A stretch of 64,000 nucleotides of DNA from Dictyostelium discoideum (taxonomy: Eukaryota), in assembly GCA_000004695.1 (NCBI GenBank), contig CM000153.2, positions 352,001 to 416,000 on the forward strand, given 5' to 3'. The notes under the pieces were generated by a model. That model saw nothing but the letters and a program-made list of their open reading frames with translations. It was not told the DNA's origin and did no database searches. Within the stretch, counting starts at the first letter, position 1. Every line of letters begins with the position of its first letter. The position numbers and the translations under genes are program-made. Of this stretch, positions 14,668 to 61,523 are shown piece by piece.

Positions 14668-14883
14668 TTAATATTTGTCGATACCACCTTGGTTACCAAG
14701 TGGATTATTTTTAATACTTGTACCACTTTGGTTACCAAGTAGACTTTTTAAAATACTAACACCTTGAATATTTAATTTTTCAAAATTAATAACAATTGAT
14801 TTTGAATTGATATCAAAGTTTTTATTTAGGGCTGATGATGACGAGGAGTTATTTAAAAATTTAGTTAATGAAGTGAAAATCAT
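14668..14883 (-). CDS. Small ORF family member (71 aa): MIFTSLTKFLNNSSSSS...NPLGNQGGIDKY
   Basis: Appears in the ORF track. Its N-terminus (MIF.SLT..LN.SSS) and C-terminal NPLGNQGG match the 12837..13001 copy, and the upstream (TTTTA)n is also duplicated. Confidence 0.45.
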   Translation of the reverse strand: MIFTSLTKFLNNSSSSSALNKNFDINSKSIVINFEKLNIQGVSILKSLLGNQSGTSIKNNPLGNQGGIDKY

Positions 14884-15545
14884 TTTAAAATTTTATTTTA
14901 ATTTATTTATTTTATTATCTTATAAAATTAAATTATATTTTTATATCAAATTATTATTATTTTAAATTTTATTTTATTTTATTTTATTTTATTTTATTTG
15001 TATTGAATAATGAATATTTATGAAAAATCATTTTTTTTTATTAAATACTTTTTTAAAAAAAAAAAAAATAAAAAAAAAAAGTATAATAAAATAATAAATA
15101 AATAATAAATGTTATAAATAGAAATCTATTTTATTTGTGACTTAACAAGTCGATGCTTGTGAATGTATTAATAAAAAAACGAGAAATAAGTTAATCCTAA
15201 CATTATGTTGATGATATAAATAGATCGAAATGATGGAGAGAATAATATCAAAAATAATTTTTAAACTGAAAATTAACAATATAATGATAGTTTTAATTCA
15301 GTACAATTATTCACTTTTACACAAATATTTCAATTTTAATTTTGACGAATCCACAAATTACATGCAAACAAATATTTCACCCCTTTTTTATTTTAAATTA
15401 TTTGTTTTTATTTTAAATTATTTTTTTATTTTTTTTTTATTTTTTTTTTTTTAGTGGTTGAACAAATAAATTTAAGGTTTCAAATTAAAACAATTATTTA
15501 AAAAAATAAATAAAAAAAACCTAATTCAATGATTAATAATTATTG

Positions 15546-15580
<35 letters not shown>

Positions 15581-16210
15581 ATAATTCTATATTAAAAATA
15601 AAATTTCAAGTAAATTATATTTTTTTCTTTAAAATAATCTTAAATTCCTACTTTCTTTGTATCAAAATTAAATTTTTTTTTTTTTTTTTTTTTAAGGTTA
15701 TTTTAAATTTAAATTCCTACTTCTTTGAAAGTAATATTAATTTTTAAATTGAAATTAAAACACTTTGGTAAAACTAATTATAAAATGAACAATTATATTT
15801 ATATATCATTTTTAAATATTTAATTTTTATAGGAATTAATTTGTTCAACAAACATTAATTTTTGTATTGTGGAATAATTTAAATAATTTGGGTGTAAAAA
15901 TGATTGTTATTTTTTTACACACAATAAAATTGGTACTATCATTATATTATGATTGTTATTTTTCCGTTGGGAATTCCTCATCGATCTGATTTAATCATAA
16001 ATTAGATAATCCAAATTAATAAAAACAAAAATAAAAACAAATAAAAAAAATAAATTTAAAAATTAATTCAATTAAAAAATGATTTTCAATACTTAAACTT
16101 AAATTTTATTTTTTATTTTTTTATTTATTTTTTATTTAATTTACAAATTTATAATAACTTTTCCAAATAAATCATTTTTTTCAATAAATTTATAAGCATC
16201 AATAATTGAA

Positions 16211-17137
16211 TCAAAACCTTTGATAACGTTTACCAATTAATAATTTAAATTTATTTTGTTCTAAATTTTTAGTAATAAAATCAACAGCTTCTTTCAATTG
16301 GATTGGATCAGTTGAATAATTAAAAACTAAATAAGCTTCCATTTTAATATTTCTATAAAACAATTGACGAGTTGGGAAAGGAGTATCACCACCAGTAACA
16401 CCATAGATAATGACACGTGCATTTTGAGCACAAACATTTATGATATTTGTAATGAATGGTCCACCAATGGGATCATAAACAATATCCACTCCTTTACCAT
16501 TTGTAATTTCTAAAATCTAATTTTCAAAATCCTTTGAATCTGATGTATTTACGAAATAATCAGCACCAAAATCTAAAAGTTGTTGCTTTTTTGAATTACT
16601 ACGACTTGTTGCAATAACTATTCCACCCAATATCTTTGCAATTTGAATGGCACCTAAACCAGTGCTACCAGTGGCTGCAGTGATTAAAATGAATTGACCT
16701 TCTTTAATTGATTTTAGTGGGTAGTAAGCTGTTAAATATGAAAACCAAATTGATGCAGCTTGTTCATGTGTTACGTTGGATGGATTCTTTACTATTGAAC
16801 CCTCTGGTTGAATACAATATTCTGAATTTGTATTATACTTATCCTGGGTTGTATTTTGTAAAACTGATACTGAATCACCAATTTTAAAATTTTTAACATC
16901 TTTACCAATTCCATCAATCACACCTGACGATTCGTATCCTAATGATGTTGGAAATTTAACATCAATACCTTGAATGTATCCACTATAATATATAGTTTCA
17001 ACTCTACCAATACCAATTGAAACATTTTTAATTCTAACTTCATTATCTTTTGGTTCTACTTTCTCTTTAATATCTTTAATATATAAATTATTAACTGATC
17101 CAAATTTATCAAATAGTAATGTTTTATTTGTTTCCAT
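16211..17137 (-). CDS. Zinc-type alcohol dehydrogenase / quinone oxidoreductase-like protein (MDR superfamily), interrupted by an in-frame TAG at 16517-16519.
   Basis: An N-terminal GroES-like part is followed by the cofactor-binding stretch LITAATGSTGLGAIQIAKILGG, then ...DYFVNTSDSKDFEN*ILEITNGKGVDIVYDPIGGPF... with both halves in the same frame. The stretch around the stop is too short (36 nt) to be an intron. Confidence 0.6.
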
Positions 17138-17157
17138 TTTATTTTTATTATTTATTA

Positions 17158-17312
<155 letters not shown>

Positions 17313-18290
17313 TTATTTGTTTTGATATGATATTATTATTATAAAAAAAAAAAATTATTAAAAAAGGTTTTATTTTAGAACCAATTCACATTTTTGTCAT
17401 TAAAAAAAAAATTTTCAAAAAAAAAAAAATATTAATTAAAAAAAAAGATATCAAGAATATCGGGTGTGGAATAAAGAATTATTTTTTTTTTTTCGAATTT
17501 ATTTATTTTATTTTTTTTATTTTATTTTTTTTTTTTTTATTTTTTTATTTTTTATTTTTTTTTTTTTTATTTTTTTTTTTTATTTTTTTTTTTTTTTTTA
17601 ACACAAATCAGATCAGTGGTTTAGTTTGGAAAATGATCATTTAAGAGCTATAGGACTTAATAAACAGTAATTTATAATCATACTTGATATTCTCATGGTC
17701 ATAATGCTGGTTACACCCCTTACATCAAGAAAACTGAAAAAGAATTATCAACTATTCAAGGTTTTACAATTTCAAGAAATCTCGGCTGATTAGTATTTTA
17801 ATTTATTCACACCTCAACATCAACAACATATTGAACTCACCAAAAACAATTTACATACACACAACCAACAACACCTACTGCACCTTCACTATGAATTAAT
17901 CGACATCAACAACAACACCAACAGTAACAACTACAACACAGCAACGGATTGTTTCACTCCACAAAATTAAAGATAGCTTATGGATTAAATATAAATTCAA
18001 ACTTCAGATGATTTAACACCAATTGGAAAGAATAGTAATGTTAGTAGCAGTAGTATTAATAGTTGTTGTACAAATAGTATTAGTAGTAGTAGTACAAACA
18101 TTAGTTCAATATCAAGTTCAAATTCATTAATAATTATAATATTAATAAAAGAAATAGGTCATCAGTAAATGTTTCAAATAACGAAATTAAGATACAATAA
18201 TAATAAAATAAATTAAAATATAAATATAAATAAAAATTAGAATTTATTAATGTAAAGTTATTTATTTATTTATGGTTTTTTTTTTTTGTT

Positions 18291-20918
18291 TTAAATATTT
18301 GAAATGAATAATGAAATTATTATAATGATTAAAATTGATAATAATAGATTTTGAAAGATATTTCTAGCATCAGAGTATTGATGAACATCATCAGATTGAG
18401 TTAAATATTTGAATACTTTTGATATACCACTTTTACCATTGGTTGAAACATTGATAAATATCATTTCACCATTTTTAATATTATTAAATGTATAATTAGT
18501 TGCTTGAATAAAACATGTTATCATTGTATCATTAATATACTTTGCTTCATTACAATTTAAACTACTATTACCACTACCATTACCATTACCAATTATTGTA
18601 ACTTTATCAATTGGATAATAGAAATCATTTCCAATAATTGTTAAAATACCTCCTTGTTTTAAATTAATTATACTAGTTTGATTAATTGATGGTGATTTAT
18701 ATATAAAACTAAATGTTGATACTATATTATTATCATTATTAAATAATAATTTACAAGTTTTACCATTTGGACCATTTAATTTAATGTAGCATTCTAATGA
18801 TGTACTGCTATTATTTAATTTACATTCTTTTTCTATAATTTGTTCACCATTACATTCAATTGTAAAATTTGTATTATTATTTAAATATTTACCAATAATA
18901 ATGATATTACCACCATTTGTATCAAACAAGTTAGGAATCGATACATTTTTAAAAATTGGAAATGTATTAATATTTACTTTATTTGATAATAAACCACATA
19001 CATTTAAATACAATTCACCAAGAATATTATACTCATCATTCATTTGAAATGATATTGATTCATAAATACTATTATTAATTTCTTTACTAAGGGCTATTGA
19101 TTGACCTGAAATAAAAATACTTGTTTCATTATATTTATTTACAAAACCTTTACCAATACAAGTAACAATTTCATTTGAATTTAAATTACATTTATTAATC
19201 AATGGTGATTCATATGAAAATGATGATTGATATATTTGATTACCAATTTCAATTTCATAATTTATAATACCACAATTATTTTCAATTAAAAATGAACATG
19301 ATACAACACTTTCATTTACATTGGTTGAAATTGATTTACTTGTTTGATTTGATTTTTCATTAATTATTTTAATTGTTGGTATTAAATTAATATTACTTGA
19401 ATTTACATAAAATAATGTAAAATTAATTAATTTATTACTAACCAATGGAATTTCATTTATTCTTGCATACATTTCTACATCTACATTGATTCCATTTGAT
19501 TTGATTGAATTTGATTCAATTGAAATGTTGAAATTATAAATTTGATTTTGTATTTTTAATATTAAATCTGTTTCATCATTATTAATTGATTTTATTTGGC
19601 CAAAAACTTGTTTATCATTGATATGAATTTGAGTTGAATTAATATTACCAAAACAACCACCAATTATATGAATTTCATCATTAACTTGAGAGAATGTTGT
19701 AATATACGGAGTATCATAAATTAATAATAATGTATTTGTATTTACGACATCATTAATCGATACAGCAATTGGTGATGAATTATTAAATGTTGAATTTGAT
19801 AATGGTTGTAAATTACATTTAATTTCATTTGAAGATGACGAAACAATTGAACAAATAGAATCACCAACTGTTACTGATATATTATTATTATTTGATGATG
19901 ATGGTGATGAAGTTAATCTATTACCATTAATTATTAATAAACCACCTTTTAATTTTGGAATACTATTTACAATTGATGGAATTGGTGGATATGTAATTTG
20001 AAATTGAGATGACCAATAATCACAACAACCGACTTGAACATTAAATTTTGATGAGAATGGATCTGAATAATTAAATTTTAATTTAATAATTTCAAAATCA
20101 ACTGAAATAATATCATTTGGGTCAATAATGTTATTATCAATTTTAACAGAAACAAAAATTGATTGATTATAGAAATTTGTACCAGTTATATCAAGAAATG
20201 ATTGATTAATATCAATTTTTTCAATGTTTGGCTCTTGATATGTAAAATTCAATGTTTCATGATTCTCCCAAATAATTGTTCTGTATCCACAACCTGGATA
20301 GACTTTTAAAATTAAATTTATTCTATCAGGTGTTTTTGATTGAAACACACCAGGAATTAAATATACATAGCCAGAATAAAAAAACTGATCTTTTCTATAG
20401 GAATTTTCAAATTGAACATATATTCTTTCTTTTAACTCTAAATAATAACCGCTTAATGTTGTATTTCCACCTCTTGTTTTTGGTTTAAACTCTGAAATTA
20501 ATAATGGACTTGGGAAATAAAATAAAGGAAGATCATAACCACACATTTTAAAAGTACCATTATTTTCTGTACATGCAGATATTTCCTCTGAATACATTTG
20601 AGCATGATCAGATTCTTTCACTGGTAAAGTACAAGTTCTAATTGTATTATTTAAAACACAATTAAAACTCATATCATAACGACTTTTACCTTTCCATAAA
20701 AATGAAATATTTGTATAATAATTTTCTATTTCACGATATCTAATCACAAGAGAATCATTGTGACTTTCATAACCTAAAAAAATAATTAATAAATTATTAA
20801 TATATTAAAAAAAGGGACAAGAAAAAAAAAAAAACAATTTACCCAAAGGAATTACTTCGTCATAAGAAATGGAAAATGAAAATAAATAAAAAAGTATAAA
20901 AAATAATAATATTTTCAT
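18291..20918 (-). CDS. Signal-peptide type-I membrane glycoprotein with about 5 IPT/TIG-like repeats and a C-terminal TM; Tgr (tiger)-like family candidate. Exons are 20843..20918 and 18291..20773.
   Basis: Exon 1 MKILLFFILFYLFSFSISYDEVIPL (signal peptide) has donor G|GTAAAT, and the acceptor TTTTTTAG|GT joins in phase to ...GYESHNDSLVIRYREIE. The repeated motif P.I.S..P..GG..I.I.G..L/F is typical of IPT/TIG domains. There are many NxS/T sites and a terminal hydrophobic helix LLLSILIIIIISLFISNI. Confidence 0.55.
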
Positions 20919-21439
20919 TTAAAAATATTGATTTCTAATTTAATGAATTATAATATTGTGGAGAATAATAATAGTAATAATAATAATAATAAAAATAATA
21001 ATATTAATAATTATTTAAAAATTAAATAACAATAATAATAAAAAAAAAAAAAAAAAAAAAAAAAAATAATATTAAATGTTATATTTTTTTCAATCAAAAT
21101 TAAAAAAAGAAAAGGGTGTGGGGTGGGGTAAATCAATTTCAAACCCCTCAATGAGTCCAAAATAGGTACCCCTTTCTAAAAATAAAAAAATTCAAAAACT
21201 GTAAAATATAAAAATGGGTTTAAAAAAAATAATAATAACATTATTAAAAAAAAAAAAACAACCCAAATAAAATGATGTTAAAAATAAAAAAAAAATTTGT
21301 GGTTAAATCACAATGGAAAAGAATTTTTTTTTTTAATTTTTTTTTAATATAAATTTATCATAAAACCATTAATTTTTATAATACAAAAAAAAAAAAAATA
21401 TAATTAATTAAATAAATTAATATTAAAAGTAAAATATAA

Positions 21440-23260
21440 ATTTAATTTTAATTGTTTTCACAGATATAATAGATAAAGAATATTTTACACTTTTTTATAA
21501 AGTAAAATGAACCTTACATTTCCAAATATATATTCAAAGATATAGATGTAAATGTTTTTGAATACAATTATAATTGTAACGTGGATGGTGATTAAAGGGG
21601 GTGTAATTTAACTACTGATTACTATTTTAAATATAATGCTTTTGTAAGCAGCAGATGGTCTACCGTTCCCATGGACTTTTTCAAAAATCTTACCAATTTT
21701 GAACCAGAATTAAAACCAGAAACTAAAAGAGGTAATTTTCAATTCAATATTACATATTTTTTATTATCAAAAAATAAGAACCCTATTTTCCAAAATGATT
21801 ATGATAAAATTGATATTTTGATAACTCCAAATGGAAAAAACGGTTCTGAATATTTAATGATTTTTCCAAGTGGTTGTGGATTTTTAAAATATTTGGTCTT
21901 TCGTTTGTTTATAATTCATCATACCAAAATCCATATATAGAAAAAGTAGAAAAAAATAAAAAAACTGTGACACTAATTGGCTCTAATTTCTGTACTGAAA
22001 TGTATCCAAAAGAAATTTTAATCAACAATCAAAAAATTAAAAATGAACAAATTATTAAAAATGATCATGAATATATTGAATTTATTTTTGAATATTCAGA
22101 ATTCTTTTGTACTTCATTTACAATTCAATTTATTGCAAGTAAAGTACCTTCAAATAAAATGGATTTAGTATATCCTCCAGTATTAAATTCAATTAATAGT
22201 ATTCCAAGAAACAAAAATGTTACAATTATTATCAATGGAGAAAGATTAACATCAAATTCTTCAATTATTATAGCAGAGGTTAAAATAGGAGATTACCCAT
22301 GTTCAATTATTACACTTTCACCAAATAATATTACTTGTTATTTGGCTCATAGAATTTTAGATAACAACTTACCAGTTACCGTAAACATAGATGGTATTAC
22401 CAACCAAAACAAAATATATTTCAACTATGACTAAACGCTTATTTCATCTTATGGTATTTCCAATGGTGTCTTGACAATATATGGCCAACGTCTTGGTGAA
22501 GTAGGATCAGAAACTATATTTAATGATAAAATCCCAATTTGTTTACAAAACCTTAAAATTAATGATAATGAAACTGTTATGTCATTCACCATTCCCGAAG
22601 CAATGTCCTCTATTAATATTTCGGTGAAATCTTATGAAAAACAATCAAACAGTAATTTTATTGGCTTATCATTCATAACTAAGTTTGATACTCAACCAAT
22701 GGTAAATGGATCAAATTGCATTGTTAAATTATTTAATTCCAGTTATGATGAAAATAAAGAAAATCCATTACTTTCAATCTATTCATATTTTGGTGATGAA
22801 TTTAAATCAAGGGAACACTCATTGGTAAAAATTCAAATGATTTAGATTATTCGTTTTTCGTTGTACCAGGTTGTGGTAGAAAAGGTTAGAATATAAATTT
22901 TGATAATAAATAATACCAGTCAACATTTAAATATAAAAAACCAATTATAGAATCATTTTACACAAAGGATGAATTCATAATCTGTACTGGTGAATTTAAC
23001 AATTATGGCTTTTATAATAATACACTTATTACATTTTCAAACCAATCAGTTTCTCCAATAAAAATAAGTTCCAATGAAATTACAACCAAAGAGGAACAAT
23101 ATTTTACAAGTGACCTAATTACAATCGGTTGTTGTGGTATTATTTCTGATCCATATGAATTAACCATTAAACCTACCATTAAGGGTGCAATTTCAATAAC
23201 ATTTGATAATAAGGGTATAGTGTTTATAGATGGAGAAAATTTTCATTCAAAACAAAATTG
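21440..23260 (+). pseudogene. Degenerate paralog of the 18291..20918 IPT/TIG gene. It is frameshifted and truncated.
   Basis: The ORF pieces 21671..21940, 21874..22434, 22471..22845 and onward to about 23260 align colinearly with the neighbour (YPPVLNSINSIPRNKNVTIIINGERL versus YPPIPSIVNSIPKLKGGLLIINGNRL). They sit in three different frames with no splice signals between them. There is no signal-peptide exon and no TM. Confidence 0.6.
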
Positions 23261-23470
23261 AAATAATAAAAAAAATAATAATTAAAAAATTATAATTAAA
23301 AAAAGAAAATTAATATTATATATATTTAAAAAGTATAAACAAAAAAAAAAAAATGTACAAGTAAAAAAAAAAAAGAGAGAAGAGAAAACAGGTCATTTAT
23401 ATTTTGAGCACACTACAATTACTATTGAAAATTACCCCTACTATCTTAGATCTCCTCTATGCAAACACCA

Positions 23471-23502
<32 letters not shown>

Positions 23503-23505
<3 letters not shown>

Positions 23506-23725
23506 CCCTTTTATATTCAAAAAAAAAAAATATTTAAATTTATAGTGTGATTTTCACCACCATCAATTAAAAAGGATATTAGTGGTTTATGTATTTATTT
23601 AAATAAAAATTAAAAAAAATAATTAAAAAAATTATAAAAAAAAAAAAGACCCTTTTATATTCAAAAAAATTTTATATATTTGTATGGTATAGTGATTTTC
23701 ACCACCATCATCAAAAAGGATAAAT
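23503..23725. repeat. Two direct copies of an approximately 75-bp unit (AGACCCTTTTATATTCAAAAAAA...TGTGATTTTCACCACCATCA..AAAAAGGATA) spaced about 145 bp apart
   Basis: Copies at 23503..23580 and 23648..23725 are near-identical and lie in an intergenic region. Confidence 0.7.
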
Positions 23726-24150
23726 TATTGGTTGTGTTAAAAAGTATGTAAAAAATAAAATATGAATAAAAATTATAAAAATAAATAAATTATAAATTAT
23801 TCAAAAATTAAAAATATGGATTTCCTTTTTTAAATTTAAAAATAAAAAAAATAAAAAAAATATTAACTTCGTGTTTAACATTGTAGTTAAAATAATAATT
23901 TTATGGTGGCTTTTAACATGATATCGCAATTTCAAGGCATTTGGATTTGTTGTCTAAAATCCAACCTAATGATTGCTAATCAATAACATCCAAACTGTTT
24001 AATTTAAAATTTATACTAATGGGGTTTCGTGTGAAAATAAATAAAAAAAATAAAAAAATGAATAAATAAAAAGCACACTATTTTTTTTTTTAATATTTTT
24101 AAAATAAATTCACAGCTGCTATAAAACCCCATTTGTATAAAATTTATTAA

Positions 24151-59745: not shown

Positions 59746-61523
59746 ATGAGAATTTTATATTTAGCTTCTCTTTTATTTTTAATTACATTATATCTATCAC
59801 CAACTTTTGGTTGGGGTGGTGGCAGAGGTAATTAATTTTATTTTATTTAAAATTTATTAATATTATTATTAAATAATAAAATTTCTAATAATAAATATTA
59901 TTTACTTTTTTTTTTTTTTTTTCTCTCTCAATATTAGATTGTGAAAGTCATCGTTCAGAATATACATGTAAATCAGATAGAAGTTGTGCATATTTACCAT
60001 TTGTATCATGTTGTGGTAAGAAAGAATTTTTCTGTGTTAATCGTGATCATAGAAATTGTTGTGATGATTTATCATGTGCTAAAAACACGAGAACTGGTGA
60101 AATCTTTGAGATTTGGTCAAGTTGTAAACCACATAGAGATTTTGTACCATATCATTCACCAAATACAACCACATGTGAATCATTAGGTTGTGAAGCAAGA
60201 GGTATGGAATGTGAATGGGTTGAATCATCACCATGTTATGGAACTTCTTGTTGCCCAAGAATTCCAAGATGTGTTGGTCATCATGGTGGCGGTCATAAAT
60301 GTGACAGAATGAGATGTCCAGAAGGATTCTATTGTGAAGAACAAGGTGGTAGTGCATGCTGCGTACCACATCATGACGGTTGTGGTAATATTCAATGTCC
60401 ATGGGGCCACTATTGTGTCAATGAACATGGTAAATGCAGATGTGTACCACACAGACCACCACCACGTCCACCAGTTGACCAATGCCGTAATCAACATTGT
60501 CCACATGGTTATTCATGTCGTGTCATTAAAGGTTGTGCCACTTGTGTCAGAGATGCCCGTCCACCACATAACCTTTGTCGTGGTTTTGGTTGTCCAGAAG
60601 GCTCCCATTGTGAAGTTCTTGAAAAACATCCAGTTTGTGTTAGAAATCATGTTCCACCACACCCACCACCACCACCACAAATTTGCGGTAGTGTAAATTG
60701 TGGTCCAGGTTATATTTGTACAATTATCAATGGTCATCCAACTTGTATTCGTGGTGATGGTTATTTATGTAATCAAACCCGTTGTCCACACGATTATCAA
60801 TGTGAAACCATTAGCACCAATATCGTGAAATGTTCACCAAAGAATGACGAATGTAAATGGCATCGTTGTCCACCAGGTTCCAGCTGCTTCAATAGTAGAA
60901 ACGGTCCACACTGTCTTGCCAATAATGTATTCCCACAACTTTGTAAAGTTACTCAATGTCCAACTGATTTCTCTTGTAAAATGATTAGAGGTAATCCAAC
61001 TTGTATTAAAGCAAGACCACCGGTACCACCACCACATTGCTCAACTTGTGCAGAGCTATCATCAGCATGTAATCACGTTGGAATGATTTGTATTCAAGTA
61101 CCAAGCAATTGTACCAATACTAGATTCCCATGTTGCCCATCTCATCCAATTTGTATTCATCCATCAACTACTGCTGCTTCAACCATTGCAACAACTGCAT
61201 CAACTGTCGCAACTACAACCTCTGCAACTACTGCAGGTACAACAACTGGTGGAACTACAACTGGTGGTTCAACTTCTGATAGTAGTGCTGCTTCCTCAGC
61301 CGATAGTAGCGCTGCCTCCTCATCACCATCAAGCAGTGCTGCTTCAAGTGCCGCTTCAAGTGAACCATCAAGTAGCGCCGCTTCAAGTAGTGCTCCATCC
61401 TCTGCTTCAAGTAGCGCTCCATCCTCTGCCTCAAGTAGTGCTCCATCATCATCAGCTTCAAGTTCAGCTGCATCATCAGCTGCAAGCTCAGAAAGCTCAG
61501 AAAGCTCATCAGCCACTTCATAA
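59746..61523 (+). CDS. Secreted cysteine-rich repeat protein with Pro-rich linkers and a Ser/Ala/Thr-rich C-terminal tail (spore-coat SP96/CotA-like architecture). Exons are 59746..59827 and 59938..61523.
   Basis: Exon 1 MRILYLASLLFLITLYLSPTFGWGGGR is a signal peptide with donor G|GTAATT, and the acceptor TATTAG|AT is in phase. There are about 12 repeats of C.{4-6}CP.G..C....G...C(V/I), PPHPPPPPQ linkers, and a tail of SSAASSAPSSSA repeats (mucin-like, O-glycosylation-type). Confidence 0.7.

Follow-up and report, generated by a model that had tools for sequence, protein, structure and literature searches.

The divergent pair at 18291–23260

The window analysed here, 64 kb of Dictyostelium discoideum AX4 chromosome 4 with about 20% G+C and with poly-Asn and poly-Tyr tracts, contains between positions 18291 and 23260 a head-to-head pair of homologous genes. 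The minus-strand gene is tgrI3, a member of the Tgr (Tiger) family, while the plus-strand copy is a pseudogene of another Tgr subfamily, tgrH. Coordinates of the pair and of its substructures are collected in Table 1.

Removal of the intron from tgrI3 yields an open coding sequence (CDS) of 2559 nt, and the encoded protein of 852 amino acids (aa) carries 30 N-x-S/T sequons. Since the translation is identical over its whole length (852/852 aa, 100%) to EAL65863.2 / XP_639204.2 / UniProt Q54RE1 (TGRI3_DICDI, "Tiger protein I3"), we consider the identity of this gene, as judged by sequence, to be settled, including the Tgr-family membership which the initial annotation had only supposed. Pfam profiles Ig_TgrO1 (9.2e-29, three stretches, above the curated cut-off) and TIG (2.2e-8; 34.4 bits, cut-off 20.9; five stretches) both match the protein significantly. 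In an AlphaFold2 (AF2) model based on 29 homologues (mean pLDDT 75), the signal helix is followed by about nine beta-sandwich domains (residues 26–813) and by a terminal hydrophobic helix (825–851) with nothing beyond it. Pfam matches, sequons and the AF2 model thus agree with the features first read from the letters of 18291..20918, namely a signal peptide, TIG-like repeats, N-glycosylation sites and a tail-less C-terminal hydrophobic helix. The nearest solved folds in a Foldseek search are ectodomains of plexin, contactin, DSCAM, Robo and cytokine receptors (~10% identity, E values down to 3e-17). With the hydrophobic N-terminus that exon 1 specifies, and with a C-terminal hydrophobic stretch that lacks a cytoplasmic tail, TgrI3 is a secretory-pathway, heavily N-glycosylated surface protein, and the C-terminal segment is its predicted anchor. 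As an alternative to a transmembrane (TM) helix, the tail-less C-terminus, preceded by small residues (..YSDA..), could represent a GPI-anchor signal. A HMMER representative search gave 407 Tgr-family matches, and a homologue search with the family alignment returned the same close relatives only. Literature searches by gene name (tgrI3, tgrH1, tgrI1, tgrI2) found nothing useful.

Table 1. Position and description of features of the tgrI3/tgrH pair in the window.
Feature	Position	Strand	Description
tgrI3 exon 1	20843..20918	-	ATG and signal peptide (MKILLFFILFYLFSFSISYDEVIPL); AF2 helix 2-17
tgrI3 intron	20774..20842	-	69 bp, GTAAAT...TTTTTAG (GT..AG), phase 1
tgrI3 exon 2	18291..20773	-	residues 26-852; stop codon 18291-18293; ectodomain and C-terminal hydrophobic anchor
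Intergenic region of the divergent pair	20919..21400	.	tgrH 5'UTR and exon 1 lost through the deletion at ~21378-21400
G/C-rich island	21109..21180	.	72 bp; KGKGKGK cluster at 21115-21128; candidate bidirectional developmental promoter element
tgrH intron, 3' remnant	21401..21463	+	ends ...TTTTCACAG; from pairwise alignment to L006
tgrH-type pseudogene	21464..23258	+	exon 2 remnant, about residues 20-626 of a 1122-aa TgrH1-like protein; 93.5% nucleotide identity to L006 7276-9157
Deletion junction, ~4.6 kb lost	23258..23263	.	window follows tgrH1 to ...CATTCAAAACAAAAT, then continues with sequence from beyond the kinase gene

A homologous and divergently oriented copy of the minus-strand gene had been proposed at a distance of 500–750 bp. 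Homology, orientation and distance stand. The plus-strand copy and TgrI3 are related in tblastn with E values of 2e-27 and 2e-5, the conceptual translation of the former has a TIG match of its own (1.4e-10), and the distance from the tgrI3 ATG amounts to 545 bp when taken to the beginning of coding homology (21464), or to 752 bp when taken to the first long open reading frame (ORF), which begins at 21671. The plus-strand sequence is, however, not a copy of tgrI3. Because the two share only ~28–31% aa identity, it is assigned to a Tgr subfamily other than that of its neighbour and did not arise as a duplicate of the latter; origin by a recent duplication of tgrI3 was rejected on the same ground. 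An alignment of the intact and the decayed gene, envisaged for dating the duplication, is consequently unusable, as the two are not duplicates of each other.

The plus-strand copy instead matches the 1122-aa protein Q54R97, with 93.5% nucleotide identity over 1887 nt and 89–94% aa identity over residues 167–626; among gene models in the databases, every close relative of it is short or fragmentary. The Q54R97 gene is located in a paralogous AX4 locus (L006) on the same chromosome, ~105 kb from the window locus. There, a protein kinase (Pkinase) gene is positioned tail-to-tail with the 1122-aa gene, and the latter is head-to-head with a tgrI paralogue of 837/855 aa. Exact matches in AX4 are XP_639150.1 / Q54R97 for the 1122-aa product and XP_639151.1 / Q54R96 for its partner. 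A published table lists tgrI2 as DDB_G0283317, tgrH1 as DDB_G0283323 (3366 nt exonic) and tgrI1 as DDB_G0283335. Because its exonic length fits to within one codon and the DDB_G numbers are adjacent to those of tgrI1 and tgrI2, Q54R97 is almost certainly tgrH1, flanked by these two genes. The TgrH1-like protein comprises a signal peptide, a TM segment at about residue 802 and a cytoplasmic tail of ~296 aa, in which a scan found no known domain. The tail (L006 5785–6700, minus strand) is built for the most part of about eight tandem repeats similar to DVACSSNNNK(I/T)NNNNISNNNN, with a conserved Cys-Ser-Ser core.

Disruption of the plus-strand copy across reading frames had been noticed before, and the decay proved heavier than claimed. 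It includes four in-frame stops (21593, 22432, 22887 and 22911) and at least three frame changes according to tblastn, probably five when inspected by eye: a 1-nt insertion at ~21503, changes at ~21890 and ~22815, and two more probable ones at 21640–21700. Eight codons are also deleted relative to tgrH1. Alignment to the intact paralogue bears out the lack of the N-terminal exon and the TM segment, and traces it to two deletions. The first, of ~125–190 bp at ~21378–21400, removed the 5' untranslated region (5'UTR), exon 1 with the signal peptide, and the splice donor. The second, of 4.6 kb, took the 3' half of tgrH (the last Ig-like domains, TM and the tail) together with the adjoining protein kinase gene; the sequence that follows in the window (23263–24104) matches L006 2695–1833 at 91%, which in L006 represents the far side of the kinase gene. 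Just downstream of the junction, a direct repeat (23472–23525 and 23616–23669, an A-run and then GACCCTTTTATATTCAAAAAAA) occurs with copies 144 bp apart, in a region homologous to L006 1833–2695. A repeat scan downstream of the pseudogene detected only low-complexity matches and one 54-nt direct repeat.

Retention of the 3' part of the tgrH intron shows that the plus-strand copy is an unprocessed, DNA-duplicated pseudogene of the tgrH subfamily. Its lesions are not assembly errors, because they are identical in a second, independent assembly (GCA_054883475.1), which has zero differences from the window in 18291–23260, and elsewhere differs in homopolymer and microsatellite lengths and in one substitution. 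A segment upstream of the pseudogene ("MEKNFFF...", ~21313) was considered as a decayed signal-peptide exon and rejected; its counterpart in the tgrH1 locus is promoter DNA, the true exon 1 being deleted.

Across the same remnant, in the annotation of the second assembly, a gene caller placed ACTFIT_006881, a spliced gene for a 449-aa product with a TIG match over 21671–23261 (plus strand; L001 7658–9248), called "hypothetical protein". Accepting this model would make the plus-strand copy a functional gene for a secreted or soluble TIG protein, for which there is some precedent: tgrB2 is without TM yet expressed, pseudogene status of tgr genes varies among strains, and AX4 pseudogene loci can be open in other strains (bioRxiv 10.1101/2025.10.22.684067). 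The three predicted introns (21902–21942, 22393–22500 and 22825–22919; 41, 108 and 95 bp), however, fall in the continuous coding exon of tgrH1, where the protein is 89–94% conserved. An intron of 41 bp looks too short for Dictyostelium. In addition, the model starts at an internal Met and is without a signal peptide, exon 1 being deleted, and on the upstream side of its ATG homology persists across one stop and one frameshift. The ratio of non-synonymous to synonymous divergence (dN/dS, or omega) is 0.82. Because its introns are conserved coding sequence in tgrH1, ACTFIT_006881 is regarded as an artefact that bridges lesions with three false introns, and a functional spliced gene at this position is extremely improbable.

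Duplication as a block and the locus in related genomes

The tgrH1/tgrI pair in L006 has the same order and orientation as the pair in the window, and includes the same G/C-rich island. It differs in that its tgrH is open and the kinase gene is present; the window has no kinase gene, and its tgrH is short of exon 1 and the 3' half and disrupted by stops and frameshifts. Nucleotide identity between the two loci equals 93.5% in both the tgrH half and the tgrI half and 78% in the intergenic segment, and protein identity between TgrI3 and the L006 TgrI is ~93%. Since synonymous divergence (dS) is similar in the two halves (0.055 for tgrH and 0.072 for tgrI), the data fit one block duplication. The kinase gene is tail-to-tail with tgrH in L006 (2855–5227) and also in the corresponding locus of D. 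cf. discoideum (L002, 13016–15301), and was therefore duplicated along with the tgrH/tgrI pair. A second gene with a kinase domain is found in L006 at 14728–18340.

The two halves differ in the changes accumulated after duplication. In the tgrH pseudogene, compared with tgrH1, dN/dS is 0.82 (61.5 non-synonymous and 18.5 synonymous changes), a value not distinguishable from 1, and its evolution was nearly neutral. Between tgrI3 and its L006 paralogue dN/dS is 0.52, from 72 changes at 1985 non-synonymous sites and 34 at 496 synonymous sites; replacement changes are under-represented (chi-square test, p ~0.002 against neutrality). This under-representation suggests that tgrI3 or its L006 paralogue was under purifying selection while the tgrH copy drifted.

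Loci of the same kind were compared in D. cf. discoideum (L002), in a divergent assembly assigned to "D. discoideum" (L005), in D. firmibasis (L007), D. citrinum (L008) and in a strain with ACTFIR locus tags (L003). L002, with an alcohol dehydrogenase (ADH)-like gene, tgrI, tgrH, the kinase gene and, beyond it, downstream genes shared with the window, is collinear with the latter. It still holds ~4 kb at the site of the AX4 deletion, with the tgrH 3' end and the Pkinase gene, and the 4.6-kb deletion in AX4 is therefore younger than the split from D. cf. discoideum. Both genes of the L002 pair are nevertheless fragmented and dead, and only ~47 bp (L002 9825–9872) stand in place of ~1 kb of the window (20608–21646), which comprises the 5' ends of tgrI and tgrH and the promoter shared by them. 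The ADH-linked locus in L005 (1920–12799) consists of three tandem intact tgrI genes without tgrH. In D. citrinum (L008 4747–13558), three tgrI copies, one of which is frameshifted, stand in tandem near an ADH gene, and the first copy forms a head-to-head pair with a tgrH-like gene. D. firmibasis has tgrI head-to-head with a truncated tgrH-like gene, and in L003 units of tgrH and tgrI are repeated in tandem. At the ADH-linked locus the number of tgrI copies is thus one in AX4 and three each in L005 and D. citrinum. Pairs and varying copy numbers in D. cf. discoideum, D. citrinum, D. firmibasis, L005 and L003 therefore suggest that the H/I pairing is old and copy number labile, and that the tail-bearing partner is usually the damaged one. 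L003 was not accepted as an orthologous locus, as contig-end distance and the absence of shared flanks make it more probably the tgrH1/tgrI cluster, and only paralogues were drawn from it.

The flanking zinc-type alcohol dehydrogenase / quinone oxidoreductase-like gene (16100–17137, minus strand) is itself broken in AX4. Relative to intact 331-aa orthologues in two genomes, its codon 207 is TAG and one extra nucleotide follows nt 916, and the new annotation masks the stop by an implausible 36-bp "intron". Farther away, two segments are G+C-rich for this genome: 34094–40846 (minus strand; 0.29–0.36), with an ORF of 2250 aa, and 60204–61523 (plus strand; 0.40 at 60–61 kb), with an ORF of 439 aa. 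Rfam and tRNA scans of the entire 64-kb window were empty.

The candidate promoter island and divergence of tgrI3

The head-to-head spacing of tgrH and tgrI, 545 bp in the window, is 783 bp in the intact L006 pair. Apart from the G/C-rich island, G+C content over 20919–21462 is 13%. The island is 95% identical in L006 (9553–9651) and 84–91% identical in tgrH–tgrI intergenic segments of L003 (9446–9520, 15143–15228 and 15366–15450), and it also occurs upstream of two tgrI copies in L005 (1666–1759 and 9318–9378; 91–92%). KGKGKGK is the response element of GBF, a factor needed for lagC (tgrC1) expression (PMC2257962). Motifs of this type number 57 in the whole window against 27.5 expected, and their densest cluster, with four overlapping half-sites, is located within the island. 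A shared GBF-dependent, post-aggregative promoter for tgrH and tgrI may reasonably be inferred from this pattern, more from the fact that the island is conserved than from the motifs; a match to the GBF consensus is in itself weak evidence.

Divergence of tgrI was assessed on divergent lineages and paralogues, which do not represent a population sample. Between AX4 and the L005 lineage, the flanking ADH-like gene has dS of 0.091 and omega of 0.057, and across comparisons its values are in the range 0.09–0.10 and 0.06–0.13, respectively. For tgrI3 and its three syntenic copies in L005, dS is 0.097–0.114 and omega 0.40–0.51, and across comparisons omega of tgrI3 is in the range 0.36–0.54. The pattern is one of fast protein evolution without excess silent divergence, as far as these alignments indicate. 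Elevated polymorphism of tgrI3, which might be read from "D. discoideum" proteins of 90–92% identity in other assemblies, was rejected, since the genomes in question are deeply diverged (ADH dS 0.09) and the differences represent ordinary divergence together with fast evolution of the protein.

Among six intact tgrI copies, none of the domains has a ratio of non-synonymous to synonymous differences (pN/pS) above 1. The most variable is domain 2 (residues 118–206; window ~20303–20567, minus strand), which is also the best Ig_TgrO1 match. Both of its values are raised (pN 0.088, pS 0.148), a pattern suggestive of mosaic ancestry and less so of positive selection. The most conserved part of TgrI is the C-terminal anchor, with pN/pS of 0.12. 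Copies of tgrI within a genome have dS of ~0.07, compared with ~0.10 for positional orthologues between genomes, and this difference, of only ~2 standard errors, hints at gene conversion or lineage-specific duplication.

Proposed turnover of the pair and comparison with known systems

According to two 2025 papers, AX4 has 38 tgr genes along with 26 pseudogenes, and the family follows a birth-and-death mode of evolution. Many members, tgrB1/tgrC1 among them, are organized in head-to-head pairs of low mutual similarity, have been duplicated as clusters, and many are pseudogenes (bioRxiv 10.1101/2025.10.22.684067). We propose, with a probability of roughly 0.9, that the locus studied here is tgrI3 beside a decayed, block-duplicated tgrH, and that it reflects routine Tgr birth-and-death turnover and not a second allorecognition locus. 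The unit of the kinase gene, tgrH tail-to-tail with it, and tgrI head-to-head with tgrH is intact in L006, and the window locus is its block duplicate. The window tgrH then lost its signal-peptide exon in one deletion and the 3' half along with the kinase gene in another, gained four stops and several frameshifts, and drifted near-neutrally, while tgrI3 stayed open, probably under moderate purifying selection. TgrI3 may be a developmental surface adhesion or recognition molecule. By analogy with TgrB1/TgrC1, TgrH, with its TM and a tail of ~300 aa, could be receptor-like, and tail-less TgrI, possibly GPI-anchored, ligand-like, the two being presumably transcribed from a shared promoter with the conserved G-box-like element. 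Because the receptor-like partner is dead at the window locus, TgrI3 could act only by itself or, in trans, with TgrH1 supplied from another locus, or would be drifting to loss.

Several observations weigh against this explanation. The receptor/ligand analogy is drawn from architecture alone, and TgrH and TgrI are outside the TgrB and TgrC clades. The name tgrH1 for Q54R97 was derived from length and gene-number adjacency and not taken from annotation. Genomes other than AX4 are represented by long-read assemblies of an AT-rich genome, and isolated frameshifts in them may be errors. Regarding expression, tgrI3 is not among tgr genes with counts per million (CPM) > 0 in one published direct-RNA dataset (wild strain QS33, 9 h, shallow), in which tgrI1 has 9 reads, tgrI2 7 and tgrH1 1; genes of its clade, AHIO, are weakly expressed in clonal development (bioRxiv 10.1101/2025.10.22.684067; PMC12745789).

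Lack of reads at 9 h in QS33 would also suit the possibility that tgrI3 itself is a functionless relic, still open but heading to pseudogenisation in a decaying neighbourhood. Both of its AX4 neighbours are pseudogenes (the tgrH copy, and the ADH-like gene with its codon-207 stop and frameshift), the D. cf. discoideum orthologue has lost the promoter and 5' end, and omega of ~0.5 indicates weak constraint. On the other hand, a frame of 852 codons with intact splice sites would not be expected to be long-lived without selection in DNA of ~78% A+T. Replacement changes are too few for neutrality (72/34 on 1985/496 sites), the anchor is constrained (pN/pS 0.12), and the DNA upstream of tgrI3 is undamaged, the conserved island included. 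We consider it unlikely that tgrI3 is already without function.

Since tgrI3 is an annotated gene and the head-to-head organization of Tgr genes has been described in the two 2025 papers, the essentials of the locus are already known. If turnover is the correct explanation, it is an ordinary example of published Tgr birth-and-death evolution that matters little beyond bookkeeping. Gains are local: subfamily H can be named for the decayed partner, both of its deletions are placed at base resolution, the 449-aa model is judged to be an artefact, and the tgrH/tgrI unit is found to carry a conserved G-box-like candidate promoter island and to travel with a kinase gene. False-intron bridging such as that in ACTFIT_006881 may inflate Tgr counts in long-read annotations of 2025–26.

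A bolder view is that tgrH/tgrI constitutes a second, independently evolved receptor–ligand module, with TgrH as a receptor whose long tail is rich in repeats, TgrI as a tail-less and possibly GPI-anchored ligand, a conserved G-box bidirectional promoter and a co-duplicated, dedicated kinase. Such a module would predate the D. firmibasis split, and would lose its receptor half time and again as copies of the ligand increase in number. This we hold to be quite improbable. If true, orphan ligands such as TgrI3 might modulate recognition in trans or store variation. The intact tgrH1/tgrI pair 105 kb away would be the starting place for the question of receptor–ligand systems other than B1/C1, with tgrI3 as a natural "ligand-only" control.

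The system with which the locus invites comparison is the allorecognition (greenbeard) locus tgrB1/tgrC1 of D. discoideum, where TgrC1 serves as ligand for TgrB1, a receptor whose intracellular domain is conserved. Resemblance to a Tgr-type allorecognition locus, the central suggestion of the initial annotation, is real in the divergent layout, the short shared intergenic region and the presence of one decayed Tgr partner. As in tgrB1/tgrC1, the partners are dissimilar members of the Tgr family arranged head-to-head around a short shared promoter, and duplication takes in the pair as a unit; a signalling-type cytoplasmic domain is present in only one of the partners, and this tail-bearing partner often decays. 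These similarities would accommodate a locus active, or recently active, in kin recognition, with TgrI3 as a polymorphic ligand of TgrH. The H/I pair is kept across four species, the ADH-linked locus has one to three tgrI copies, omega of 0.4–0.5 for tgrI3 contrasts with 0.06 for the flanking gene, and domain 2 is hypervariable. However, only the divergent pair with a shared promoter is found in the window and not two intact partners, as tgrH is without signal peptide, TM and tail; the cis partner is thus dead in AX4, and in D. cf. discoideum both genes are dead. Elevated silent divergence has been described for tgrC1 in published work, where tail-bearing tgrB is also reported to decay often, whereas in tgrI3 silent divergence is at background and no domain has pN/pS > 1. 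At the time of the tgrB1/C1 peak (9 h), there are no tgrI3 reads in the one QS33 dataset. Kinship of the pair with tgrB and tgrC is not upheld either: in a published tree of 500 Tgr proteins, H and I belong to clade AHIO, apart from BEJ and CDK, and AHIO genes are numerous, mobile, often duplicating and of unknown function (PMC12745789). An allorecognition role for the tgrI3 locus is therefore unsupported, and a working kin-recognition pair of this kind is very improbable.

Other AX4 pairs (tgrB_ps/tgrC_ps1, tgrC2–C5) offer a further parallel to the turnover proposed here, as they are duplicated pairs in which one member has stops, truncations or deletions and whose state varies between strains and cryptic species. 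The window pair differs from these pseudogene pairs in being composed of H and I, and in having two mapped deletions and the loss of a co-duplicated kinase. Outside the family, the metazoan receptors and adhesion molecules plexins, Met, contactins, DSCAM and Robo likewise have membrane-anchored ectodomains in which beta-sandwich domains form an elongated string. With TM-scores of 0.1–0.2, and with TgrI3 lacking sema, kinase or other signalling domains, this likeness is an analogy in architecture and does not make TgrI3 a member of their families.

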